Shown piece after piece: positions 38,409 to 56,743 of a DNA stretch of 64,000 nt. The position numbers were made by a program, and so were the translations under genes. Below the pieces are notes generated by a model that was given only the letters and a program-made list of their open reading frames with translations, did not search any database and was not told the DNA's origin. Position 1 is the stretch's first letter. Each line of letters starts with the position of its first letter. Source of the DNA: Planctomycetota bacterium (GTDB taxonomy: Bacteria; Planctomycetota; B15-G4); contig JACKHP010000024.1 in assembly GCA_020638905.1 (NCBI GenBank), positions 228 through 64,227 on the forward strand, read 5' to 3'.

Positions 38409-40628
38409 ATGGCGCGCATGACCTTCCGCTCATGCATGCCACACATCCGCCCCGGGTCCGCCGGCTCCCGTTTCCGCCCGTGCGCCTCTCGCGGTGAGCG
38501 CGCACACGAGCCGAGGCGCGCCTGTCCGCGCGGCGTGGCGTGGACGACGGAGACACCCGATTCGCCTGCTCCCGCAACGATTCCGCCCACGGACGACTGC
38601 CGACGGACGATCGCGTGCGGCGCGCCGCGGGTCGCGCGAGCGAGGGTCGGCGCGACGCGGCGAGGCGCGTCCGGCGGCAGGCTGCGTGGCATCGCCCTGC
38701 TGGCCACGCTGGCGCTGGTCCCGGCGGCGCGCCCGGACGACGAGCCCGCCGCGGCGTCTCCCGTGCGTCCCGCGCTCACCTCGCTCGAGCGCGAACTCGG
38801 CTGGACGGCACTCTTCGACGGACGCGACCTGGCCGGCTGGCGCTCCACCGACGGAGCTCCCCCCGGCGACGGATGGCGCGTGCACGACGGCGTGCTCGAG
38901 CAGTCGGGCGGCGCCGGCGACCTGCTCTCGACGCGCGTCCTGCGCGACGTCGAGCTGCGCTTCGCGTTCCGTGTCGCGCCCGGCGGCAACAGCGGCGTCA
39001 AGCTGCGCGTGCTCCCCGCCGGACGTCCAGGCGCCGGCGGTGCGCCGCTCGCGGCTCCCGTCGGACTCGAGTTCCAGATCCTCGACGACCTCGCGCACCC
39101 CGACGCGGCGTCGCCGTCGCACCGCTGTGCCGCGCTCTACGATCTCGTCCCGCGCGACGGCGCACTCGATGCGCGTCTCGACCTGGCCGGCACGTGGCAC
39201 GCCGCGGGCGTGCGTCTCGACGGCGGACGCCTGACGCATCGGCTCGACGGCGCGCGCGTGCTGCGCGTGCAGCTCGACGACGCCGCGTTCGCCGAGCGCG
39301 TCGCGCACAGCAAGTTCGCCGGCGTCCCCGACTTCGGACGGCTCGCCGGCCCGGTTCTGCTGCAGGACCACGGCGACCCGATCGCGTTCCGGGACGTCGT
39401 CGTGCGCGACCTGGCCGCGTTGCCGGGACGTCCCGCCGCGCCGCCGCCGTTCGATGCGGGCGTGCCGCCGCGCGACGTCGGCTCGCCCGCGTTCGCCGAC
39501 GTGCGACCGTTCGACGTCGTCGGCGCCCACACGCTCGCCGGCGACGACTTAGACTGGCGCGCCCTCGGCGACGCGCGCTGGACGCTGCGCGACGACGAGA
39601 TCCTCGGCGAGACCGACGGCGGCTCGCAGAGCTTCCTCGTCTCGCGCCGCGCGTTCGGCGACGCGATCGTGCAGCTCGACGTGCTCGTCGAGGGCAAGGG
39701 CAACTCGGGCATCCAGGTGCGCAGCCACGTGAGCGACGCGGGACGCATGTTCGGGTACCAGGTCGAGATCGACCCGTCCGAGCGGGCGTGGTCGGGCGGG
39801 CTCTACGACGAGGCCCGGCGCGGCTGGCTCGACGACTTGTCCGACCAGCCCGAGGCCCGCGCGGCCTTCCGCTCCGGCGAGTGGCTGCGCTACCGCATCG
39901 AGCTCGCGGGCCCGTCGATCCGCCCCTTCGTCGACGACGTGCCGTGCGCCGACGTGCTCGATCCGCTCGACCTCGAGGGACACCTCGCGTTCCAGGTCCA
40001 CGCGGGACAGGACACGCGCGTGCGCTGGCGCGGCCTGCGCGTCCGCGACCTGGGCACGCGCGCGTGGGAGCCGCTGCCCGTCGACGCGCCGCCTTCGTCG
40101 CGCGACGCGACGGGCACGCGCGCCTGGGCGCGCGACGCCTCGTCCGATGCCCGGCCCTCGTGGACGGCCGCGGGGCGCGGCACCTGGGCGCTCGCGTCCG
40201 ACGCGCCGCGCGAGGACGAGGCGCTGCGCGTCGAGCTGCGCGCGCGCGGCGACGTGCGGCTCGCGCTGCTGCTGCGCGCGCGCTCCGTCGCCGACGGTCT
40301 CGCCGCGTGGGACGCGAGCGACGCCGACGCACCGCGCGACCCGGACGCGAGGCACGCCGACGACGCCGCGCCCGACGCGCCGACGCGGCTCGCGCTCCCC
40401 GCAGGCGGACGCCTGCTGCTGCTGCCGCGCGTGGCCGACGACGCCGCGCACTCGCTCGCGCTGTGCACCTACGGCGCGCGCGTCGCCGTGCACCTCGACG
40501 GACGGCTGCTGCTCGACGCGCGCGTCGACGACCTCGCACCGAGCGGCGCCTGCGGCTGGCTCGCGCGCCTCGGCGACGACGCCACGCTCGAACTCGCGCG
40601 TCCCGAACGGCTGGGCGAGCCGCGCTGA
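38409..40628 (+). CDS. Secreted protein with three DUF1080 (3-keto-disaccharide-hydrolase-type) jelly-roll repeats
   Basis: GWTALFDGRDLAGWRS...GNSGVKLR...VLLQDHGDPIAFRDVVVRDL, then NSGIQVRS...HLAFQVHAGQDTRVRWRGLRVRDL. The third copy is degenerate. Signal-like RLRGIALLATLALVPAARP lies ~90 codons after ATG 38409, so the start (38409/38418/38436/GTG 38535) is uncertain. Confidence 0.7.
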   Translation: MARMTFRSCMPHIRPGSAGSRFRPCASRGERAHEPRRACPRGVAWTTETPDSPAPATIPPTDDCRRTIACGAPRVARARVGATRRGASGGRLRGIALLATLALVPAARPDDEPAAASPVRPALTSLERELGWTALFDGRDLAGWRSTDGAPPGDGWRVHDGVLEQSGGAGDLLSTRVLRDVELRFAFRVAPGGNSGVKLRVLPAGRPGAGGAPLAAPVGLEFQILDDLAHPDAASPSHRCAALYDLVPRDGALDARLDLAGTWHAAGVRLDGGRLTHRLDGARVLRVQLDDAAFAERVAHSKFAGVPDFGRLAGPVLLQDHGDPIAFRDVVVRDLAALPGRPAAPPPFDAGVPPRDVGSPAFADVRPFDVVGAHTLAGDDLDWRALGDARWTLRDDEILGETDGGSQSFLVSRRAFGDAIVQLDVLVEGKGNSGIQVRSHVSDAGRMFGYQVEIDPSERAWSGGLYDEARRGWLDDLSDQPEARAAFRSGEWLRYRIELAGPSIRPFVDDVPCADVLDPLDLEGHLAFQVHAGQDTRVRWRGLRVRDLGTRAWEPLPVDAPPSSRDATGTRAWARDASSDARPSWTAAGRGTWALASDAPREDEALRVELRARGDVRLALLLRARSVADGLAAWDASDADAPRDPDARHADDAAPDAPTRLALPAGGRLLLLPRVADDAAHSLALCTYGARVAVHLDGRLLLDARVDDLAPSGACGWLARLGDDATLELARPERLGEPR

Positions 40629-40633
40629 GGAAG

Positions 40634-43231
40634 TCAGCCCTCGGCGTCGAGCGCGTCGGCGGTGTACGCGTCCTCGCGCCCGGCCGACGCGGCGCGCGCG
40701 GCGGAGACCGTCTCGACGGCGACCGGATCGGCGCCGTGGCCCCACTCGCGACGCAGGTAGGTGAGCAGCGCCGCGAGGGTCTCGTCGTCGGCCGGGTAGG
40801 CCGGCATGTCCTGGTCGAACGGTCCGCCGGGCAGATCGAGCGGGCCGGTCAGGCCGTGCAGCACGAGGCGCGCAAGGCGCGCCGGATCGCCCAGCACGTA
40901 CGGCGAACCGACCAGCGACGGCGCCCGTCCGGGCTCGCCGCGACCCGACGCGAGGTGGCACGGCGTGCAGCCGACGGCGAACGCGAGCCGTCCGGCTTCG
41001 AAGCGCGCGGCCTCGTCGGCGCTCAGCGGACGCACGGGCGGCGCGTCGGCGACCGCGCGGCCGGGCCACGCCAAGGCCGCATCGAGCCGCGCCGCGCGCG
41101 TCGCGACGTCCGCGTCGTCGGACGCGAGCAGCGCGCCCAGCGCGGCAGGCTCGGCGAACAGCGTGCGCCGTCCGTCCGGACCGAGGCCGTCGAGCACGCC
41201 GTCGAGCAGCGCCCGGGCGCGCCAGGGCTGCGACTCGCGGGACGCGCGTCCGAGCAGGTCGACGAGGCGCGCGCCCGATCCCTCGCGCGTCACCGCGCGC
41301 GCGAGCAGCGCGAGGAGCACGTCGCGGCCCGGCGCCGGCTCGTCGCCGTCGAGCAGGTCGAGGAACTCGAGCTCGACGCCGCGCAGGCCCGAGAGCACGG
41401 CGCCGCGGCGTTCGGGCGTCGAGCAGTCGGCGTCCATCGCGCGGGCGAGCAGGCGTCGCCCGGGGACGCCGGCCGCGCCCAGGCTGAAGAGCGCCTGGAT
41501 GCGCACGCGCGGCGACGGGTCGTCGAGCGCGTGCGCGAGCGCGCCGAGCAGCGCGTCGTCGTCGCCGGTCACGCGTCCCTCGGTGAGCCGCAGCGCGGCC
41601 AGGCGCACGGGCAGGTCGGCGTCGGACGTGCGCGGCAGCAGGTCGGCGGCCTCGAGCGCCCCGAGTCCGTCGAGGGTCCAGAGCGCGTGCAGCCGCGCCC
41701 GCGGCGACGGATCGTCGAGCCGCGCACGCACCGCGGGCACGGTGTCCGCGTCGTCGGCGCGCCGCTCGACGAGCTCCTGCTGGGCGCGGTCGCGCCACCA
41801 GCCGTCCTCGTGCGCGAGCAGCGCGGCGAGCCCCGGCACGTCGAGACGCAAGAGGTGCGGGACGTCGCGCGGCGGCATGTCGTGCGCACGCAGGCGCCAG
41901 ATGCGTCCCCGCCCCACCGGCTGCTCGAGCCCGCGCGCCTCGATCTGCGCCCGCAGCCAGCTCGTCAGGAAGACCCGGTGCTGCAGCACGCCGCGCGCGA
42001 GGTCGACCACGTAGAGCGCACCGTCCGGTCCGTCGCACAGGTTCACGGGACGGAAACGTTCGTCGCGCGACGCGAGCGGCGTGCGTCCCGTCGCCGGCGG
42101 ACGGGCCGCGAGCGCGCCCGACGGATCTTCGACGAGCTCGTAGCGCATGAGCAGGTTCGCCGACGGCTCGCACACGATCACGTCCCCGCGCATGTCGGCC
42201 GGGACGCCGCCGCCGCGCAGCACGTGCGGCGCGCAGGCCGCGGTGACCGACCGCAGCCGTCCCGCGGCGTCGAGCACGCCCTCGCGGTAGCCGCGGTTCA
42301 CGCCCGGCGTCGCCCGCACGGGGAACACGCCGAAGTCGTCGGCCAGACGCACGTCGAGACCCGGCACGGCGCCGTGGTCGACGTTGCGCCGGCCGTAGAC
42401 CGCGGGCACGAGGTCGCCGCGCAGCGGGTCGCTGTTGTTGTCGTGGAAGGTGCGGCCCTGGTCGTCCTGGGTGAGTCCCCACTGGCCGCCGCCGTTCGTG
42501 AGCTCGGGCACGAAGCGCGTGCCGTCGAAGCGGTACTGGCGGGCGTCGTTCGCCAGGCGGTAGCGGTTGTCGAGCGTGCGCAGCAGCGCGTTCGGCGCGT
42601 GCTCGGGATTGTCGAGGCCGGAGAACCCGCTCTCGACCACGACGCGCTCGTCGGCCCGTCCGTCGCCGTCGCGGTCGCGGCAGAAGAGCAGCTCGGGCGG
42701 CGCGAGCACGAGCGCCCCGTCGTACGCGGGAGCCACCGCGCGCGGCAGCACGAGCCCGTCGAGGAAGACGGCGCGCGTGTCGAGGCGTCCGTCGCCGTCG
42801 GCGTCGGAGAGCACGGCGATGCAGCCTGACGGCTCGAGTTCGTCGCGTCCGTCGGCGTCGCGCATGAAGCCCGGCATCTCGACCACCCACAGGCGTCCGT
42901 CGCCGTCGAAGACCGCCTGCACCGGATCGTGCAGGAGCGGCTCGGCGGCCACGAGTTCGACGATCAGTCCGTCGGCCGGCACGAAGGCCGCCAGCGCGTC
43001 CTCGGGCGAGAGCGCGGGGGCCGCCGGCAGCACGAACGCCGCGGGCAGCGGCGGCTGGGCCTCGCCCGGCACGTCGCCCGCCTGCCCCGCCGCGGGCGAC
43101 GCGCCCAGCGCCGCCGCCCACGCGACGGCCAGGAGCCGTGGTGCGGCGGCCGGACCGCGTCGGTCACGCCCGCGTCGTGCGACGCGCGTCCGCCGCCCGT
43201 CCCGCGCAGACCGGACGCGCCTTCGTCTCAC
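40634..43231 (-). CDS. PVC-type putative membrane-bound dehydrogenase domain / HEAT repeat / haem-binding CxxCH protein
   Basis: GTG 43231 overlaps the upstream stop (GTGA). Signal LLAVAWAAALGASPAAGQ. LVAAEPLLHDPVQAVFDGDGRLWVVEM. HEAT-like repeats. C-terminal CTPCH. Confidence 0.8.
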   Translation of the reverse strand: MRRRRVRSARDGRRTRVARRGRDRRGPAAAPRLLAVAWAAALGASPAAGQAGDVPGEAQPPLPAAFVLPAAPALSPEDALAAFVPADGLIVELVAAEPLLHDPVQAVFDGDGRLWVVEMPGFMRDADGRDELEPSGCIAVLSDADGDGRLDTRAVFLDGLVLPRAVAPAYDGALVLAPPELLFCRDRDGDGRADERVVVESGFSGLDNPEHAPNALLRTLDNRYRLANDARQYRFDGTRFVPELTNGGGQWGLTQDDQGRTFHDNNSDPLRGDLVPAVYGRRNVDHGAVPGLDVRLADDFGVFPVRATPGVNRGYREGVLDAAGRLRSVTAACAPHVLRGGGVPADMRGDVIVCEPSANLLMRYELVEDPSGALAARPPATGRTPLASRDERFRPVNLCDGPDGALYVVDLARGVLQHRVFLTSWLRAQIEARGLEQPVGRGRIWRLRAHDMPPRDVPHLLRLDVPGLAALLAHEDGWWRDRAQQELVERRADDADTVPAVRARLDDPSPRARLHALWTLDGLGALEAADLLPRTSDADLPVRLAALRLTEGRVTGDDDALLGALAHALDDPSPRVRIQALFSLGAAGVPGRRLLARAMDADCSTPERRGAVLSGLRGVELEFLDLLDGDEPAPGRDVLLALLARAVTREGSGARLVDLLGRASRESQPWRARALLDGVLDGLGPDGRRTLFAEPAALGALLASDDADVATRAARLDAALAWPGRAVADAPPVRPLSADEAARFEAGRLAFAVGCTPCHLASGRGEPGRAPSLVGSPYVLGDPARLARLVLHGLTGPLDLPGGPFDQDMPAYPADDETLAALLTYLRREWGHGADPVAVETVSAARAASAGREDAYTADALDAEG

Positions 43232-44803: not shown

Positions 44804-46045
44804 ATGCGCCGGCGCCCGTCGCGGCGGCGCGCTCCCGAGCCTCGCGGCGTCGACACCATGCCCGAACACCCTGCCCCGCGCCGCCGGCGCGCGCTGCGCG
44901 CGGCGCCGGCCGTGGCGCTCCTCGCACTCCTCGGCGCCACGCCCTGCGCGCACGCCGACGACGACGCCGCGCGCGCCGCGTTCCTGCTGAACTGCGCCCG
45001 CTGCCACGGCGAGACGGGCGACGGACACGGCACCGAGACGCTCGATCGTCCGGCGCGTTCGTTCCGCGACGGCGGCTTCTCGTTCGGCAACACGGCCGAG
45101 GCGGTCTTCCGCACGATCTCGCACGGCATCCCCGGCAGCCCGATGCCGTCGTTCGAGGCGCTCTCCGAGAGCGATCGGCGCGCGCTGGCCGGATACGTGC
45201 TCTCGCTCGGACCGCCGCGCGCCGAGGCGTCCGACGAGCAGACCGAGCTGCGCGTCGCAGAGCGCGCCGTCGTCGTGCGCGGACTCCTGCCGCCGATCTC
45301 GGCCGCGGCGTCCGAGCAGCCGCGCGGCCTGCTCGTGGGCACGCCCGACGGACTCACCTTCGAGTACCGCGCCGACGAGCTCTCGCTGCTCGGCGTGCGC
45401 TTCGGAGCCTTCGTGCGCCGTACCGACTGGACAGGCCGCGGCGGCACGCCGCTCGAGCCGCTGGGCAAGGTCGTCGCGCTCATGCACGCCGGCGCGCCGC
45501 CCGCGAGCTTCTCGCTCGTCGGCGGACCGTCCTCGAAGGGCACGCGCGACGGGTCGCGCCTCGAACTGCCCCTGCACTGCGAGCTCGTCGCCACGCGCGT
45601 GAACGGCGCCACGTGCACGCTGAGCGGAACGCTCGTGCGTCCCGACGGCAGCCGCCTCGGGACGCTCGAGGAGTCCGCCGGCGCGATCTCGAGCGCGTTC
45701 GCGTCGGGCTTCGTGCGCCGGCTCGGCGTGCCGCTCCCTCCCGACGGGGCTCTGCGCGTCGACCTCGGGCTCGAGCCCGGCGCCGAGACGCTCGCCACGA
45801 CCGAGGACGCCGTGGCGCGGCGCACGTGGTTCGTGCTGCGTGCGACCGACGGCGAGGTGCGCTGCCTCGGCGTGACGCTCTCGTCCGGCGAGCCGGTGCT
45901 CGTCGACGGCCCGCACGGGCCGGCGCTCGAGCTGCGCGCGCTCCCCGGCGAGCTGCTGCCGCGCGGGGTCGAGATCGTGACCCTGCTCCCCGCGCACTGG
46001 ACGGACGACGACCTGCACGCCCTGCTCGACGAGCCGCTGCGATGA
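44804..46045 (+). CDS. c-type cytochrome with ~290-aa unassigned C-terminal domain
   Basis: Arg-rich signal RRRRALRAAPAVALLALLGATPCAHA. CARCHGETGDGHG...GIPGSPMPSF. The stop overlaps the next start (ATGA). ATG 44858 is an alternative start. Confidence 0.75.
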   Translation: MRRRPSRRRAPEPRGVDTMPEHPAPRRRRALRAAPAVALLALLGATPCAHADDDAARAAFLLNCARCHGETGDGHGTETLDRPARSFRDGGFSFGNTAEAVFRTISHGIPGSPMPSFEALSESDRRALAGYVLSLGPPRAEASDEQTELRVAERAVVVRGLLPPISAAASEQPRGLLVGTPDGLTFEYRADELSLLGVRFGAFVRRTDWTGRGGTPLEPLGKVVALMHAGAPPASFSLVGGPSSKGTRDGSRLELPLHCELVATRVNGATCTLSGTLVRPDGSRLGTLEESAGAISSAFASGFVRRLGVPLPPDGALRVDLGLEPGAETLATTEDAVARRTWFVLRATDGEVRCLGVTLSSGEPVLVDGPHGPALELRALPGELLPRGVEIVTLLPAHWTDDDLHALLDEPLR

Positions 46046-48831
46046 CGACCAGACCTCCGTGCACGACGCTCGCCCTGCCGGGTGCAGCGCTGGCCCTCTC
46101 CCTCGCACTCGTCGCGCCCGCGCTCGTCGCGCAGGACGGCGGGCCGTCCGCCGACGCGTCGACGTCCGACGCCGACGAGGGCTCGCTGCTCGAGCTCGAG
46201 AAGCGCTACTACGTCGTCGAGCCGATCCCTGCGCCGCCGGGCGAGGTGCTCGAGGTGGGCGGCCTCGGCCGCCTCTCCGACGGACGGCTCGTGGCCTCGA
46301 CCCGCCGCGGACAGGTCTGGCTCGTCGACGGCGCGCTCGACGACGACCCGTCCGACGCGACCACGACGCTCTTCGCCGAAGGCCTGCAGGAAGGCCTCGG
46401 CCTGTGCGTCGTGCCCGGCGAGCACGGAGCCCGCGACCGCATCTTCGTCGTCCAGCGCGGCGAGCTGAGCGAGCTGGTCGACGACGACGGCGACGACCGC
46501 TGCGACACGATCCGCACGATCTGCAACGACTGGGGACTCTCGGGCAACTACCACGAGTTCGCCTTCGGCCTGCCGCGCGACGCCCGGGGACGCTTCTACG
46601 TCTCGCTCAACGTGGGCTTCCTGAACCCCGAGTGGTGGCACGGCAAGTCGATCGCGCCCTACAGAGGCTGGCTCGTGCGCATCAACCCGTCCGACGGCGC
46701 GATGACGCCGATCGCGAGCGGCTTCCGCAGTCCGTGCGGCCTGGGGCTCGACACCGACGGCACGCTGTACGTGACCGACAACCAGGGCGACTGGATGCCG
46801 ACCTGCGGCATCTTCGCCGTGCACGAGGGCGGCTACTACGGACATCCCGCGTCGCTCGCGTGGACCGACGAGTACCTCGCGAACCACGCGCAGCCGAGCG
46901 ACACGATGCCGCCCAAGCGCACGCGCGACCCGGCCGCGGTCTGGATCCCGTACGCGTGGTCACGCTCGACCGGCAACCTCGAGCCCGACACGACCGCCGG
47001 GCGTTTCGGTCCCTTCGCGGGACAGCTCTTCGCGGCCGAGCTCACGAACGGCGAGCTGCTGCGCGTCCAGCTCGAAGAGGTGCGCGGACGGAAGCAGGGC
47101 GCCGTCTTCCGTTTCAGGCGGCGCATCGGTTCGCTCGTGCGCGTGCTGTTCACCGACGAGGGCACGCTCGTGGGCGGCATGACGAACCGCGGCTGGGGCG
47201 GCCTGCCCCCCGCCGACGGCCTGGTGCGCATCCGCTGGACGGGCGAATTGCCGCTCGAGATGCACCACGTGCACCTGCTCCAGGACGGCTTCGAGATCAC
47301 GTTCACGAAGCCGCTCGACACGAGCCGCACGATCGTGCCCGACGACGTGACGCTCACGCAGTACGACTACGACTCCTGGTGGGAGTACGGCTCGCCCGAG
47401 CGGCACACGACCGCGGTGCCGGTCACGTCCACCGCGCTCTCGGCCGACGGACGCACGCTCACGCTGCGCGGTGCCGATCTCGTGCCGGGCATGGTCGCGC
47501 GTGTCGCGCTCGCGAACGTGCGTGCCGCCGACGGCTCGCCGCTGCTGCACGACGAGTTCGCGTACACGATCAACCAGCTCCCCGAGGGACCGCTCAGCAC
47601 CGCGGACGTGGCCAAGACCGTCCCGCCGCCGCCGCCGCGCACGTCGGGCGCCGAGGGCTGGCTGAGGCTCACGTACTTCGACGCGCTCGACGCCTGGGAG
47701 CAGCACGGCTGGCAGCTCGTCGACGCCGAGCTCGATCCCGAGCACCCGCGCACGTTCATGGTGCGCGACGGCGTGAACGCGCTCGTCGACACCGGACCCG
47801 ACGCGTCCGAGTTCACGAGCCGCTACGCGATGGGCGACGGACGCTACCACGTCGAGTTCATGCTGCCCGAGGGCGGACGTGCCGCGGTGTACGTCCAGGG
47901 CCGCTACGGCATCGCGCTGGCCGACGACACCCACGGGCTCGCGGCGGACGAGCCGTCCAGCGGGGCGCTGCTGCCGCTCGCCGACGGCACGCCCTCACGC
48001 GCGCCGGCCTTCGACGCGTACAAGGGCCCGGGGACGTGGCACGCGCTCGACGTCGACTTCGTCGCGCCGCGGTTCGACGCGTCCGGCGAGAAGCTCGCCG
48101 ACGCGCGCTTCGCGAACGTGCTGCTCGACGACGTGCTGATCCAAGAAGACGTCGCGCTGCCCGCCTGCGCCGCGGGACGTCCCTCCGACGAGGTCGCGCT
48201 CGGACCGCTCGTGATCGCGCCCCGGGACGGCTCGCCGCTGGCGCTGCGCACGATCCAGTTCCGTCCCGTGCAGCCGGCGGTCGACGACGAGGGCTGGGTC
48301 TCGATCTTCAACGGCGACGACCTCGACGGCTGGCGTCTGTCGCCGGGCATCGAGGATCCCGACGGCGAGCGCTGGGAGGCCGGCGGCGGCGAGCTCGTCG
48401 GTCGCGGCGACACGAGCCACCTCTTCAGTCCACGCGGCGACTACCGCGACTTCGAGCTGCGCGCCAAGGTCATGATCAGCGACGGCGGCAACTCGGGTCT
48501 CTACTTCCGCGTCGCGTACGGTCCGGGCTGGCCGAAGGGCTACGAGGCCCAGGTCAACGCGAGCATGTCCGACCCGCAGAAGACCGGCAGCCTGTACGAT
48601 CTCGCGCCGGTGCACGTCGAGCTCGTCCCGCCCGACACGTGGTTCGACTACCACGTCACCTGCCGCGACGAGTCCGAGGGGACGCACGTCACGATCGCGG
48701 TCGACGGCGTCGTCGTGACCGACTTCGTCGACACCGAACGCCGGCACGCCAGCGGCCACATCGCGCTCCAGCAGCACCACCAGGGCTCGGTGGTGCGCTG
48801 GCGCGACATCCAGGTCAAGGTGCTCGACTGA
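46042..48831 (+). CDS. Secreted beta-propeller (glucose/sorbosone-dehydrogenase-like) fused to two DUF1080-type domains
   Basis: Signal LALPGAALALSLALVAPALVAQD. RSPCGLGLDTDGTLYVTDNQGDW propeller block. EGWVSIFNGDDLDGWRLS...NSGLYFRV...GHIALQQHHQGSVVRWRDIQVKVL. Confidence 0.75.
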   Translation: MTTRPPCTTLALPGAALALSLALVAPALVAQDGGPSADASTSDADEGSLLELEKRYYVVEPIPAPPGEVLEVGGLGRLSDGRLVASTRRGQVWLVDGALDDDPSDATTTLFAEGLQEGLGLCVVPGEHGARDRIFVVQRGELSELVDDDGDDRCDTIRTICNDWGLSGNYHEFAFGLPRDARGRFYVSLNVGFLNPEWWHGKSIAPYRGWLVRINPSDGAMTPIASGFRSPCGLGLDTDGTLYVTDNQGDWMPTCGIFAVHEGGYYGHPASLAWTDEYLANHAQPSDTMPPKRTRDPAAVWIPYAWSRSTGNLEPDTTAGRFGPFAGQLFAAELTNGELLRVQLEEVRGRKQGAVFRFRRRIGSLVRVLFTDEGTLVGGMTNRGWGGLPPADGLVRIRWTGELPLEMHHVHLLQDGFEITFTKPLDTSRTIVPDDVTLTQYDYDSWWEYGSPERHTTAVPVTSTALSADGRTLTLRGADLVPGMVARVALANVRAADGSPLLHDEFAYTINQLPEGPLSTADVAKTVPPPPPRTSGAEGWLRLTYFDALDAWEQHGWQLVDAELDPEHPRTFMVRDGVNALVDTGPDASEFTSRYAMGDGRYHVEFMLPEGGRAAVYVQGRYGIALADDTHGLAADEPSSGALLPLADGTPSRAPAFDAYKGPGTWHALDVDFVAPRFDASGEKLADARFANVLLDDVLIQEDVALPACAAGRPSDEVALGPLVIAPRDGSPLALRTIQFRPVQPAVDDEGWVSIFNGDDLDGWRLSPGIEDPDGERWEAGGGELVGRGDTSHLFSPRGDYRDFELRAKVMISDGGNSGLYFRVAYGPGWPKGYEAQVNASMSDPQKTGSLYDLAPVHVELVPPDTWFDYHVTCRDESEGTHVTIAVDGVVVTDFVDTERRHASGHIALQQHHQGSVVRWRDIQVKVLD

Positions 48832-50634: not shown

Positions 50635-51786
50635 TCAGCGGCGTCCGGCACGACGACGCGCCGCCGCTCCCGCCGCGGAAGTGGTCTTCGACTTCGCGTT
50701 CGGCTTCGACTTCGACTTCGACTTCGCGTTCGACTTCGGCTTCGACTTCGCGTTCGACTTCGGCTTCGCGTTCGCGTTCGTCTTCGGCTTCGCGCTCGTC
50801 TTCGGCTTCGCGCTCGGCTTCGGCTTCGCGCTCGGCTTCGGCTTCGCGTTCGCGCTCGTCTTCGGCTTCGCGCTCGGCTTCGGCTTCGCGTTCGCGTTCG
50901 TCTTCGGCTTCGCGCTCGGCTTCGGCTTCGGCTTCGGCTTCGGCTTCGGCTTCGCGCTCGGCTTCGGCTTCGCGCTCGGCTTCGGCTTCGGCTTCGGCTT
51001 CGGCTTCGCGCTCGTCTTCGGCTTCGCGCTCGTCTTCGGCTTCGCGCTCGACTTCGGCTTTCGCGCCGCCGCCTTCTTGACCGGCCCCGGACGCTTGCCG
51101 CCCGGCCCTGTCGTCGCCGGAGGCGCGCCACCGTGGCGCCGCGCGATCGTCTTGGCGATGTACTCGGCGACGTCGGGAGTCTTGCAGCCGGTCAATCCGT
51201 GGTCGACCTCGACCTTGCCGATGCGGCGGGCCGAGGCCAGCGCAGCCTTCTCGAGCTTGGGGCTGCGCAGGCCGAGCAGGATCAGCGCGCCGTTCATCGC
51301 GTGCCGCACGCGGTTGGCCGAGGCGTGCAGACGCGCCTCGATCTCGGCCAGGCGCTGGCTGCCCTCCTCCTCGGTGAGGTCGGCGATCTGCGGCAGCACC
51401 GTCCAGCCCACCGACGCGATCCACTCCTGGCTGGACGCGCACCAGCGTTCGCCCAGCGTGCGCGCGTGCGGCGAGCGCACCACGAGCACCGCGAGCGCGT
51501 CGCCGAGCACGTAGTTGTCCACCTGGTCGATCCAGCGCTGGAGCTGCTCGGGCGTGGTCTGGGCCGGGTCGGCGATGCGCGTGGCCAGGATGCGCGCGTC
51601 GTGGTTGCCCGTGTCCCACAGCGCCCGGGCCAGCTCGTGGTCGGTGCCCAGCTCCTTCGTGAGCCGGTTCTGCTCGGCGTAGCTGACCCCGTAGAGCGGC
51701 GGCGTGACGCCGTGCCGCGCGTAGACCTTGCGGTTCTGATCGGTGCCCGCGACGGCGAGTCGCGCGAGGACCTCGGCCAGGTTCAT
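50635..51786 (-). CDS. DNA alkylation repair (AlkD/AlkC-type HEAT-like repeat) family protein with Lys/Pro/Ala/Ser-rich C-terminal tail
   Basis: ATG 51786 ([10 protein letters not shown]). [52 protein letters not shown]...[10 protein letters not shown]. The last ~147 aa are (S/T)AKPK / KPKP / NAKSK repeats. Confidence 0.7.
50683..51078. repeat. Imperfect tandem 6/12/15-nt repeats (GGCTTC/GCGCTC/GACTTC units) inside a CDS
   Basis: Visible run of CGGCTTCGGCTTCGCGCTC... It encodes the KP/AKPK tail on the minus strand. Its antisense gives the spurious GFGFGF ORF 50681..51514. Confidence 0.9.
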
Positions 51787-51930
51787 GTCAAACCGCTCCG
51801 CGTCGGATGGGACGCGTCGGCCGACCCCTCCCTGGGGTCCCCGGCCGAGCCGCGGCAGAGACCCTACCGCGTCGCAGGGCCCGCTCCCAGGGGCGAGTCG
51901 GCCCGGAAGGCGACTTATCCGCGGGGAGGA

Positions 51931-52963: not shown

Positions 52964-55444
52964 TCAGCGCTCGGCCGAGAGCGCCTCGACGCGTCCGACG
53001 AGCGCCTCCATCTGCTCACGCAGGGTCGACAGCTCGTCGCGCAGTGCGTCGATCTCGGCGTCCTTCTCGGTGACGAGCTCGTTCAACCCCTGGATCGCGG
53101 CCAGCGCCACGCCGTCGGGGTCGACGGTGTCGATCAGCTTCGCGCTCACGCCCAGGCCGAACGCCTCGCGGAAGTCCTGGGCCATCGGGCCCATGTGGCG
53201 CACCGACTCGTCCTGCGCCTTGTAGTTCCAGGTCAGGATCGGCATCCCGGCCACGAGCTCGAGCACGCGACGGGCGTCGACCGGCTGCATGTTCTCCTTG
53301 CTGTCGCGATCGCTCACCGACGACCACGACCCGGCTCCCGACGGCAGCACGACGCCGGCGCTCGCCGCCGCGTTCGAGAAGATCGTCGCCCCGCCGCGGG
53401 CGTAGACCGTGAACGAGTTGGGGCCTTGGGAGTCCTTGATGCCGCCCAGTCCGTCGCCCCAGACGAAGCTGCCGGTGTGGCTCGCGAGCGCCTCGCGCCC
53501 CGCGGCGAACGAGAAATCGCCGGCCGCGGTGTTGGAGTACCCGCCGGGGACCGTGCCGGCGCGGCCGTCGACGCGGTTGTCGTATCCCCCGCCCACCGTG
53601 CCGAGGTCCCTCGACACCCGATTGGACGCGCCGCCGCCGATCGTGGTGCTGCCGTACACGTCACCGTAGGCCCGGTTGCCGTAGCCGCCGCCGACGGTGT
53701 TGTGCGCGGTCACGTACTGGTAGTAGCCGGATCCGTAGCTGCTCGGGTATCCCGCACGGTTGTAGGAACCGCCTCCGACGACGTCCGCCGAACCCATCGT
53801 CTCGTTGCGTTCCCCGCCTCCGATCGTGCTGAAGTGAGGACCCTGGTTGTAGTAGTACCCGGGGACGCCCCGGATCGTGTTCTCGGAGCCGCCGGCGATC
53901 GTCCCGCCGCCGGCGTTCTCGTACACGCGGTTCCCGTATCCGCCGCCGACCGTCGCGCCGACGGCACCCCGGTTCACCCGGTTCTCATAGCCGCCGCCGA
54001 TGACGGCCTTGCTCGCCCGGATCTCGTTGTTCGTCCCACCACCGATCGCGCTGAAGTCGCCCCTCGATGCATACCTGTATGAGTATCCCTCTCCCGCGAT
54101 GAGATTGCCCCTGCCACCGGCGATCGTCGCGCCGCCGTTCGAGTCGACATAGTCGCCCGAGATGCGGATCTGGTTGTAGCGTCCGCCTCCGATCGCGTTG
54201 GCGGGCCCCGTCCTGCCGGAGATCGAGTTCTCGACTCCGCCGGCGATGGTGGACGCATAGTCATCGTAGCCGCCCGATTCGACACGATTGTTCCCACCTC
54301 CGCCGATCGTGACCAGATTGCCGGAGACCGAGTTGTAGCTTCCGCCTCCGATCGTGCTGGCTCTCAGGTTCGATTCGTATCCGTAGCCCGAGTCACCGCG
54401 GATGGAGTTGCGGTAGCCGCCTCCGATCGTCGCGTGGCCGTAGCCGTACTGATCGCCGTACATCGCGATCTCGTTGCGCTCTCCGCCACCGACCGCGTTG
54501 CCGCTGCCCGAGCGATTCGAGACCTTGTTGTAGAGTCCGCCGGCGATCGTCGCGCCCCGGGCTGCCTCGCTGCCCGCCTCGACCTTGTTGAGCAGTCCCC
54601 CGCCGACCGTGCTGTACTCGCCGGCTGCGCGGTTGTCGAACCCGCCGTCGATCACCGAATGCGAGCCGTTGGCCGCGTTGTCGGTCCCGCCGCCGACGAA
54701 CGCCGACGAGGCGAAGGTGTTGTTCACGCCTCCCGTGTGCGGGCCGTCCTGACCGGGGTCGCCCTTCGGACCGATCGGGCCGGGCGGCCCTCCCGAGGGA
54801 CCCGTCGCACCCTGGGGTCCGGCGGGACCCTGGGATCCCGTGTCGCCCTTCGGGCCGGCCGGACCGGCGGGGCCGGTGGCTCCCGCGGGACCCACCGGAC
54901 CGACGTCGCCTTGAAGTCCCATCGGGCCCTGCGGACCGGCGACCATCGACTTGCCCACGAGCTCGGCCGGTGACTCCGCGTACTCGACCGCCTTCTTGCC
55001 GAAGTTCGTGATCTGCGTCGTGAACCAGGCCACATCCATCTCGAAGCCGTCGGGCAGCGACTTGCTCGAGCCCACGATGAGATCGAGCTCGCCCGCCAGC
55101 TTCGACGGCAGGATGAAGCTGCCCGACGTCGGATTCGAGTCGCCCGCCGGCCCGAGCACGCCACCCTTGGCCTCGATCGCGAAGTCGAGCTCCTCCGCCC
55201 AGGGCATCCCCATCTCGTCCATCAGGGGGACGAGTTCGGAGCCGGACTTCTCGTACAGGCGCACGACCACGCTGAAGCTCGTGCTGGCCTTGAGCGGCGC
55301 GAAGGTCACCGCGCCCCCCTTCTTCGCCTTCGACTTGTAGACGGGAGCGTGCAGACGGAGCTGGGCCGAGCCGTCCTGTGCCAGGGCACCGAACGAGGCC
55401 AGGAAGGCGAGCAGCACGACGACGGAGTTTCGCTTGGGCAACAC
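52964..55444 (-). CDS. Secreted fibre-like protein: collagen triple-helix repeats + GGGxxN beta-helix repeats + S74 intramolecular-chaperone (tail-spike type) C-terminus
   Basis: GTG 55444 (or TTG 55441) gives [23 protein letters not shown]. About 22 G-X-Y triplets. About 20 [ST][IV]GGGxxN repeats. [32 protein letters not shown]...[15 protein letters not shown], then a coiled-coil-like end. Confidence 0.8.
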
Positions 55445-55594
55445 GGGACCGACCTCACACGCGGGAACGGGCCCCCCTTGGTCGAGCCCAGGTCGGCGAC
55501 CGTAACACGGGTTCCGGAACCTGCCAATCCGCGGCGAACCCCGCAGGCCGGGCACCGCGCCCGCCGGAAACGGCGGGCGCGGTGTGCCGACCGC

Positions 55595-56596
55595 TCAGAA
55601 GTGCTTGAAGAGCGAGAACACCGTACGCGCGTGCAGTTCCTTGTCGTCGGTCACCGGCAGGCTCACGCCCAGGCCGAGCTGCAGGCTGGGATCGGCGCCC
55701 GGCTGCAGCTTGATCCCCGGCGTGAGCGTCCACGCGTCGAGGCCGTCCTCCTCGCCGCCGTGCACGTGCACTCCGTTCAGCTCGCACAGCACCCAGGTGC
55801 GGTCGCCCAGCTGGTCGAGCACCGAGAGATCGAGCGCGAGTTCGTAGTCGGCCTCGTCGTCGCGGTCCGCGTCGTGGAACGGGATGCCCGCCGAGACGAA
55901 GCCTACGTACTCCCACGTGCCGGCCTTGTATCCGGCGTCGACGTACGGCTCGAGCTCGAACACGTGGTTGCTGCCGATCCCGAGGCGCTGGTCGCCGGTG
56001 GGCAGGCCGAGTTCGAGACCGCCACCCACGAGCAGGTTCGGGTCGGAGCTCGGATACGCCGCGTACTTCGCGTTGAGCCGGACCGTGTCGAGCCGTCCCG
56101 TGGCGTGCATGTGGTCGGGCTCGATCTCGGTGTACGGGATCTCGACCGCGACGCTCAGCGACGGATCGAACGCGTACTCGAGTTCGAGCCGCGCGCCGCG
56201 CCGCGTCGCCGCCGAGTCCTCCTCGCGCGGCAGGTTGGCGTCCTCGAGGTCGAGGCGCGCCTTGGTGTCGGGCGAGGGTGACTCGGTCACGATCGGATGG
56301 GAGAAGTGCACGGGTCCCGTGTGGTTCGGGTCGTGATGGAAGAACCCGGCCTCGGGCGCCGTCGCGCGCGCCGAAGCCGAAGCCGAAGCCGAAGCCGAAG
56401 CCGAAGCCGAAGCCGAAGCCGAAGCCGGGCCGAAGACCGACACGGCGCCGGTCGTCGGCGAGGGTGCGCCGAGCACGAGTGGCGACGAGAACGCGACGGG
56501 CTGCCCGCTCACGCAGGCGGCCACGCACAGCAGGGGCAGCGCGCCCAGCGCGCGTGCCCCGGGGGACCGACGGGTCCCCGGACGATGGAACGACAT
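55595..56596 (-). CDS. Outer-membrane beta-barrel (MetA-pathway/transporter-like) with lipobox, (Ala-Ser)x9 linker and His-rich segment
   Basis: ATG 56596. LLCVAAC lipobox-like. FFHHDPNHTGPVHFSHP. Alternating-strand pattern. Terminal LFKHF (C-terminal Phe). Confidence 0.7.
   Translation of the reverse strand: MSFHRPGTRRSPGARALGALPLLCVAACVSGQPVAFSSPLVLGAPSPTTGAVSVFGPASASASASASASASASASARATAPEAGFFHHDPNHTGPVHFSHPIVTESPSPDTKARLDLEDANLPREEDSAATRRGARLELEYAFDPSLSVAVEIPYTEIEPDHMHATGRLDTVRLNAKYAAYPSSDPNLLVGGGLELGLPTGDQRLGIGSNHVFELEPYVDAGYKAGTWEYVGFVSAGIPFHDADRDDEADYELALDLSVLDQLGDRTWVLCELNGVHVHGGEEDGLDAWTLTPGIKLQPGADPSLQLGLGVSLPVTDDKELHARTVFSLFKHF
56370..56423. repeat. Perfect hexanucleotide repeat (GCCGAA)x9 inside a CDS
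   Basis: Nine uninterrupted GCCGAA units. On the minus strand they read GCT TCG = (Ala-Ser)x9. Confidence 0.95.
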
Positions 56597-56743
56597 GGAA
56601 TGCTCCCGACATGCGGATCTTGGCGCCGCGAGCACGCAGCCCACGGCGCGAGGGTGCGCCGCACCGGCCCGGCGCGGCGGAACGGACGCGCGGCGCGGTG
56701 CGTCCCGCGCGCTGCGGGACGACGCGCGCTGACGCGTCGACGG

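Follow-up and report, generated by a model that had tools for sequence, protein, structure and literature searches.

The closest described counterparts of the gene considered here are the mosaic adhesive trimer (MAT) fibres of Bdellovibrio, a set of 21 proteins that share a signal peptide and an invariant, beta-rich N-terminal domain of about 130 residues (Caulton et al., 2024; PMC10769870). This N-domain is without a homologue in the PDB and was proposed to bind the surface of the producer itself; it is followed by a long trimeric shaft and by swappable tips (PMC10769870). An S74 domain with the motif SDxxxK ends 13 of the 21 fibres, and Bd3182 was found to cleave itself at S782, which is blocked by the exchange S782A (PMC10769870). 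In Supplementary Table S3 of the same work, separate entries are given for a fibre of the Planctomycetes-Verrucomicrobia-Chlamydiae (PVC) group with an S74-like tip and for a Saprospiraceae fibre with a collagen-like tip (PMC10769870). Here we analysed a gene of similar layout, located on the minus strand at 52964-55444 of a 64,000-nucleotide stretch (the window) of contig JACKHP010000024.1 from a planctomycetotal genome (assembly GCA_020638905.1). We consider its product a Sec-exported protein and most likely, with a probability of roughly 0.65, a homotrimeric, MAT-like adhesin fibre displayed by the bacterium itself. An earlier note, made from the sequence alone, had predicted a fibre that is trimeric, cleaves itself and serves the producing cell. 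The elements on which this reading was built were all borne out, and by analogy the prediction would agree with the experiments on the Bdellovibrio fibres (PMC10769870). Architecture, chemistry and mosaic evolution are already described for this known class of fibres; the moderately new element is a family-restricted base domain, present in five paralogues.

The reading frame is open throughout, with 826 codons and a stop, and is favoured by a frame plot of the third-position GC content (GC3). It starts with a GTG codon at 55444, and the sequence GAGG is found 8 nt upstream, at 55453-55456. The identical 826-residue protein also results from an independent gene call on a public contig (Logan) of an activated-sludge metagenome. 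Two wastewater metatranscriptome contigs map to the 5' end of the gene, at 55161-55392 with one mismatch and at 55278-55468 with none, and were taken as a weak sign of transcription.

The order of the domains was read directly from the protein. Residues 1-22 (55379..55444) constitute a Sec-type signal peptide with an AxA site, ending in ALA before QDG, which was recognised by eye, without a predictor. The leader is followed by an all-beta N-domain of 147 residues (aa 23-169, 54938..55378), proposed to serve as base or anchor of the fibre; the signal peptide and the N-domain of about 150 residues described in the earlier note are thus both recovered. The N-domain yielded zero matches in Pfam and NCBIfam. 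Its AlphaFold2 model, computed from an alignment of 26 sequences, is all-beta with ten strands (predicted local distance difference test (pLDDT) 86.5, predicted template modelling score (pTM) 0.81), and gave nothing significant against the PDB or the predicted viral structures of BFVD, where the best match had E=0.02 and a template modelling score (TM) of 0.30. Matches to a C2-like fold were weak (TM 0.28) and were not accepted as evidence.

The N-domain is joined to a collagen triple-helix stalk (aa 170-236, 54737..54937), in which the Pfam model Collagen (PF01391) matches aa 173-232 with 31.0 bits against a cut-off of 27.2; the region is also matched by the SclA model and by BclA. The earlier note had seen about 22 uninterrupted G-X-Y triplets here. 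The stalk and the number stood, the continuity did not, as the run consists of 17 and 5 triplets with one extra proline between them. Short G-X-Y stalks that need an adjacent trimerisation domain are likewise found in Scl1/SclA and BclA. In those Gram-positive proteins the attachment is via LPXTG or to the exosporium and the tip is globular, whereas the nucleator of the collagen helix in the present protein would be a removable S74 domain.

Residues 237-646 (53507..54736) form a beta-roll of the type seen in the heads of UspA1 and YadA. A repeat table lists 21 [VI]xGGxxN turns within aa 250-640, with a basic period of 15 residues, about half of the turns being lengthened by inserted loops rich in tyrosine and glycine. 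The YadA-head-like nature of the repeats had been correctly recognised in the earlier note; their extent, put there at about 460 residues, comes to about 400. Homology to the head of the Moraxella adhesin UspA1 (PDB 3pr7) was obtained with E=1.3e-11 when the sequence was used singly and with 4e-53 when a family profile was used, and the beta-roll appears as a regular strand ladder in an AlphaFold2 monomer model of aa 237-826 (pLDDT 77.7). The resemblance to the UspA1 and YadA heads (3pr7, 3ntn) thus comprises left-handed beta-roll turns of 15 residues with the GGxxN signature and a clear homology in sequence. Unlike in these adhesins, the protein has no membrane-anchor barrel and the polarity of the fibre is opposite; trimerisation, which in UspA1 and YadA involves the anchor and a coiled-coil stalk, would here presumably proceed via S74 and collagen. 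Between the beta-roll and the C-terminal domain lies a neck with the pattern FSFAAGxxAxAxHxGSFVWGD...GSWSSV (aa 647-710, 53315..53506), delineated by conserved columns in an alignment of 34 sequences. The neck ends at the predicted cleavage site V710/S711, the position of which was derived by analogy with S782 of Bd3182.

The C-terminal part (aa 711-826, 52967..53314) is an S74 intramolecular chaperone and predicted self-protease, as had been claimed in the earlier note. The Pfam model Peptidase_S74 (PF13884) matches aa 711-762 with 43.8 bits against a cut-off of 22, and with 48.7 bits in a six-frame search; the profile comparison proposed in that note, with Collagen and Peptidase_S74, therefore gave scores above the curated cut-offs for both. 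The sequence S711-D-R-D-S-K716 fits the SDxxxK consensus, and Ser711, Lys716 and an HxGPxAQDF motif are invariant in the 34 aligned homologues. The protein ends in a heptad-like helix of about 50 residues, a coiled coil at approximately aa 775-826, in accordance with the heptad-like end read in the earlier note. A cut at V710/S711 would, as computed from the sequence, release a chaperone of 12.8 kDa from a mature chain of 68.2 kDa.

Searched with Foldseek, the C-terminal monomer model found its best structural match in the ICA domain of eukaryotic MYRF (7dc3; probability 1.00, TM 0.48-0.56, E=0.065), which was also the best sequence-profile match in the PDB, borderline at E=0.013 when the S74 part was used alone. 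MYRF, whose ICA domain is a recognised relative of S74, is a membrane-bound transcription factor, and what it has in common with the present protein is the self-cleaving trimerisation module alone. A C-terminal Ser-Lys dyad domain is shared as well with the phage chaperones of the K1F endosialidase (3GW6) and of the L-shaped tail fibre of T5 (4UW8). Phage S74 domains drive the folding of the trimer and then remove themselves, and those found by sequence are about 40% identical to the copy described here. Unlike in the phage proteins, the parts upstream of S74 are not of phage type, export is by Sec, and the gene is located amid ordinary chromosomal genes. A chance resemblance was ruled out, because Ser711 and Lys716 are invariant in the 34 homologues and because, of 26 proteins with this N-domain, 17 have collagen in the position seen here.

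The N-domain is rare. When 1.84 billion cluster representatives were searched exhaustively with HMMER, 29 proteins were retrieved, all with the domain right behind a leader peptide; in the 26 relatives scanned it begins at about residue 20-35, after a hydrophobic leader. What follows it varies, with matches to collagen in 17 of these relatives, to S74 in 7, to UspA1_rep in 4 and to other beta-rolls in 3, and unrelated tips in the remainder. The distribution over genomes was determined in 401 sampled genomes of the phylum. Of the 13 genomes from the family of the source genome, 9 encode the domain in 1-9 copies, 8 of them with matches at E<=1e-13 and the ninth with one at 1.5e-4. None of the 11 genomes from the rest of the order has it, and among about 375 genomes from other parts of the phylum there are 2 with a match, one strong and one marginal. 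A search of 185,579 species genomes with a 5-sequence alignment of the N-domain returned no confirmed relative. The domain is restricted almost wholly to one bacterial family.

In the source genome, it occurs in five paralogues, located on contigs C19, C17, C47, C1 and C7. These directly establish a paralogous family in which one base is shared and shafts and tips are swapped: the shaft is either collagen of varied length or made of 'AxGAVTSxKIA' repeats, the tips differ, and S74 is present in one of the five, the gene studied here. An N-domain together with S74 is likewise found in a protein of 824 residues from another genome (G215). As a separate observation, two of the paralogues (C19:35919-37967 on the plus strand and C7:64435-66600 on the minus strand) end in a common uncharacterised tip with the motif GFDLAE[RW][FY]P ... 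[FY]YGDxGSxxW[IV]xxRGxG[WY]F, the C-terminal part of which also occurs in seven metagenomic relatives (P0129-P0131, P0137, P0144, P0145 and P0148).

The remainder of the protein has a far wider distribution than its base. With the full protein as query, 8,000 candidates were scored, and at least 2,709 of them proved to be relatives at E<=1e-3. PF13884 is present in all of the best 120, many of which are encoded on contigs of 100-500 kb, and a collagen match is also present in 15 of the 119 relatives listed. In databases they are named 'tail fiber domain-containing protein', 'trimeric autotransporter adhesin' or 'hypothetical', and the named ones stem from Planctomycetota, Bacteroidales, Anaerolineae and Thermoflexales. 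At least one S74 domain was found in 41 of the 401 genomes of the phylum (39 of 288 genera). Given these relatives and the occurrence of S74 in the phylum, the unit of beta-roll, neck and S74 is, as judged from sequence, a widespread chromosomal module. The unusualness implied in the earlier note was accordingly overestimated: there are thousands of chromosomal relatives, and databases already contain proteins that combine collagen with S74.

Among the nearest S74 relatives examined, the majority carry a different base. A common N-domain of about 105 residues, with the pattern GTAFTYQGRL...NGLFTV.LDFG...RWLEI.V...L.PRQ.L..PYA, was detected in 81 of the approximately 120 examined. Of the 401 sampled genomes, 48 encode it; it is not found in the source genome, and is missing or weakly matched in the family to which this genome belongs. 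The two types of N-domain meet in a bridging protein from the same family (L012:1393-3117, on G322:C13), which has the identical order of signal peptide, N-domain, collagen, beta-roll and S74. Both profiles align with one and the same stretch of its N-domain, without a shift in register, with per-genome E-values of 1.5e-4 for the one and 2.6e-7 for the other. The rare N-domain, which appears to stand in the place of the common one, is probably a diverged form of it that is peculiar to the lineage. For the broader reading, in which the common domain is the base of bacterial MAT-like fibres and the rare one its lineage-specific substitute or a far-diverged version of it, the odds seem to us to lie somewhat below even.

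Taken as a whole, the protein resembles the Bdellovibrio MAT fibres, with Bd3182 as the nearest example, in its leader, a beta-rich N-domain of about 130-150 residues without a PDB homologue, a shaft and a C-terminal S74 domain with SDxxxK. It further resembles them in that the genes are chromosomal and non-phage, with several paralogues per genome that have a common base and differ in shaft and tip. It departs from Bd3182 in the shaft, which in the latter is an intertwined triple beta-helix and here consists of collagen and a single-chain beta-roll of the UspA1 type. Further differences are that the N-domain is a rare, family-restricted version and that there is no sign of the source organism being a predator. 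The protein agrees with the MAT fibres in each feature open to test here, and strict membership in this class would hinge on homology of the N-domains.

For the steps after export, that is for trimerisation, self-cleavage, surface anchoring and adhesion, we infer the following course from the homologues. The chain would be exported by Sec, whereupon the S74 domains of three chains (aa 711-826), each including its coiled coil, would associate first. The S74 trimer would then set the register in which the neck, the 21-turn beta-roll and the 22 collagen triplets fold, from the C- to the N-terminus. The dyad of Ser711 and Lys716 would subsequently cut between V710 and S711 and free the chaperone, leaving the end formed by beta-roll and neck as the free distal tip. 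The 147-residue beta-sandwich N-domain would stay proximal and dock the fibre on an envelope component of the lineage. The ligand-binding surface is likely to be formed by the Tyr/Gly-rich loops of the beta-roll together with the newly exposed end of the neck.

The phage-like C-terminus makes it necessary to consider an orphan tail fibre or tailspike, either as the remnant of a prophage, a tailocin or an extracellular contractile injection system (eCIS), or as a protein used in trans by a particle that is encoded elsewhere. Such an origin could account for the S74 identity of about 40% to phage proteins annotated as 'chaperone of endosialidase' and for the PHROG tail-fibre families that match the collagen and S74 parts, and the end of the contig lies 9 kb upstream of the gene. 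The surroundings speak a different language. Across the 64-kb window, about 45 genes supported by the frame plot were called and all scanned with Pfam, and none of them belongs to a capsid, terminase, tail, baseplate, sheath, integrase, eCIS or type VI secretion system (T6SS) family; nor was a tRNA found in the window. On the contigs of two close relatives (P0003 and P0124), there are no phage-family neighbours among the genes with recorded Pfam matches, and the neighbourhood of the fibre gene has no genes in common with those of the five dispersed paralogues. In a comparison with 50,697 phage records, matches were confined to aa 709-801, that is to S74, and came from three phages; the N-domain has no viral fold match. 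Because no phage-type family is present in the window and phage matches are limited to S74, the gene stands, on the contig at hand, outside any prophage, as had been stated in the earlier note; this non-phage context was directly observed. The protein moreover bears a Sec signal peptide, which virion proteins, being assembled in the cytoplasm, normally lack. We therefore regard a phage-derived particle fibre as very unlikely.

More thought is due to a fibre that is released, or that is part of an extracellular matrix, sheath or holdfast, with the N-domain as a module for matrix contacts or self-association. The protein has no lipobox, transmembrane helix or YadA_anchor, its N-domain has a fold without a known match, the organism lives in activated-sludge flocs, and collagen-like proteins often form filaments or naps. 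We nevertheless judge this improbable, since the constant N-domain with variable tips in five paralogues follows the logic of a common docking site, as argued for the MAT fibres (PMC10769870), and since in every characterised case it is the S74 end that lies distal and exposed. A type Vc trimeric autotransporter adhesin comes to mind because the repeats are strongly homologous to the UspA1 head and because several homologues bear the Joint Genome Institute (JGI) label 'trimeric autotransporter adhesin'. This assignment is hardly tenable, because the defining C-terminal anchor barrel is absent: no YadA_anchor match was obtained at E<=1, and the C-terminus consists of S74 and a coiled coil. The polarity is inverted too, with the head adjoining the C-terminal end that is predicted to be cleaved off.

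Several points weigh against a MAT-like fibre displayed on the surface. The fibre could be shed instead of anchored, and the related loci compared revealed no conserved neighbouring gene that would suggest a partner in secretion or anchoring. The structure models used here are of monomers; for the C-terminal model, Foldseek gave no match at E<=0.001, the best being 0.06, and the K1F chaperone (3gw6) ranked 48th. An alignment of the rare with the common N-domain by hhalign was not significant (probability 4%, P=0.01), and homology of the N-domains therefore rests on the one bridging sequence described above and its modest E-values. Finally, the contig ends about 9 kb past the gene and the genome is 73% complete.

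The fibre gene is preceded by a GC-rich hairpin on the minus strand (55546..55592) with a perfect stem of 14 bp, a computed energy of -52.2 kcal/mol and z = -4.6. It is located directly after the stop codon of a lipoprotein gene and about 100 nt ahead of the fibre start, and is likely to be either a terminator without a T-tract or a repetitive extragenic palindromic (REP)-like element. With a probable terminator in this position, the fibre gene probably forms its own transcription unit. Scans for sigma-70 promoters and T-tract terminators around the gene found nothing.

The lipoprotein gene upstream (55595-56743, minus strand) encodes a beta-barrel-like protein with a lipobox, an (AS)n linker, a His-rich stretch and the C-terminus FSLFKHF, and is matched weakly by Phenol_MetA_deg, an outer-membrane barrel family (E=0.0036). 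A (GCx)n repeat at 56370-56430 of this gene, which encodes alanine and serine, shows a very high summed contig depth in all runs, reaching about 28,000 in X1. This peak is due to a low-complexity repeat common to many organisms and is not a signal of copy number. The barrel-like lipoprotein, a small Cys-rich ORF, an M14 peptidase and a TPR/DUF3857 protein were considered as partners of the fibre and were rejected on present evidence, because these neighbours do not recur, the lipoprotein is single-copy and the hairpin separates it from the fibre gene. No paralogue of the lipoprotein was found beside the other four fibre genes or elsewhere in the genome, and no neighbour recurs in nine related loci or on the contigs P0003 and P0124.

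The window has a G+C content of 72-76% and therefore contains long spurious ORFs in every frame. These are found, for instance, in the antisense frames of the gene at 50635-51873 (minus strand), which encodes an AlkD-like DNA-alkylation-repair protein with a basic tail of about 150 residues made of KPKxSA/KPKPKP repeats, similar in look to histone H1. Besides this protein, the genes identified with Pfam in the window comprise sulfatases, methyltransferases, a xanthine-dehydrogenase-type enzyme, cytochromes including 'Planctomycete cytochrome C' (PSCyt1), 3-keto-disaccharide-hydrolase fusions, a met-zincin, a Kelch protein, a LOG-family protein, the M14 peptidase and the TPR/DUF3857 protein. 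Large exported proteins are clustered at 38541-40628 (plus strand), 40634-43102 (minus strand) and 45613-48831 (plus strand); they combine modules of 3-keto-disaccharide hydrolase (DUF1080-type), DUF7133, HEAT repeats and c-type cytochrome. The cluster adjoins a PSCyt1/DUF2231 membrane cytochrome and looks like a redox and sugar module of planctomycete style. PSD1 proteins number two in the source genome and zero in 14 control genomes, and these, together with PSCyt1 in the window, speak for a probable member of the Planctomycetota.

The gene is a clear non-predatory, non-phage example of a phage-like class of self-cleaving surface fibres, the cleavage being predicted. Its practical value is limited. 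The rare base domain, together with the bridging sequence, could help to find the envelope receptor and the export route of this class of fibres. If the rare N-domain is indeed a replaced or diverged form of the common base, and if the base co-evolves with the envelope component on which it is docked, the natural base swap would provide a comparative handle on the question left by the work on MAT fibres, namely to what the fibres are anchored and by which route they reach the surface. In the activated-sludge setting of the organism, such fibres could matter for the formation of flocs and for the attachment of cells to each other or to particles.

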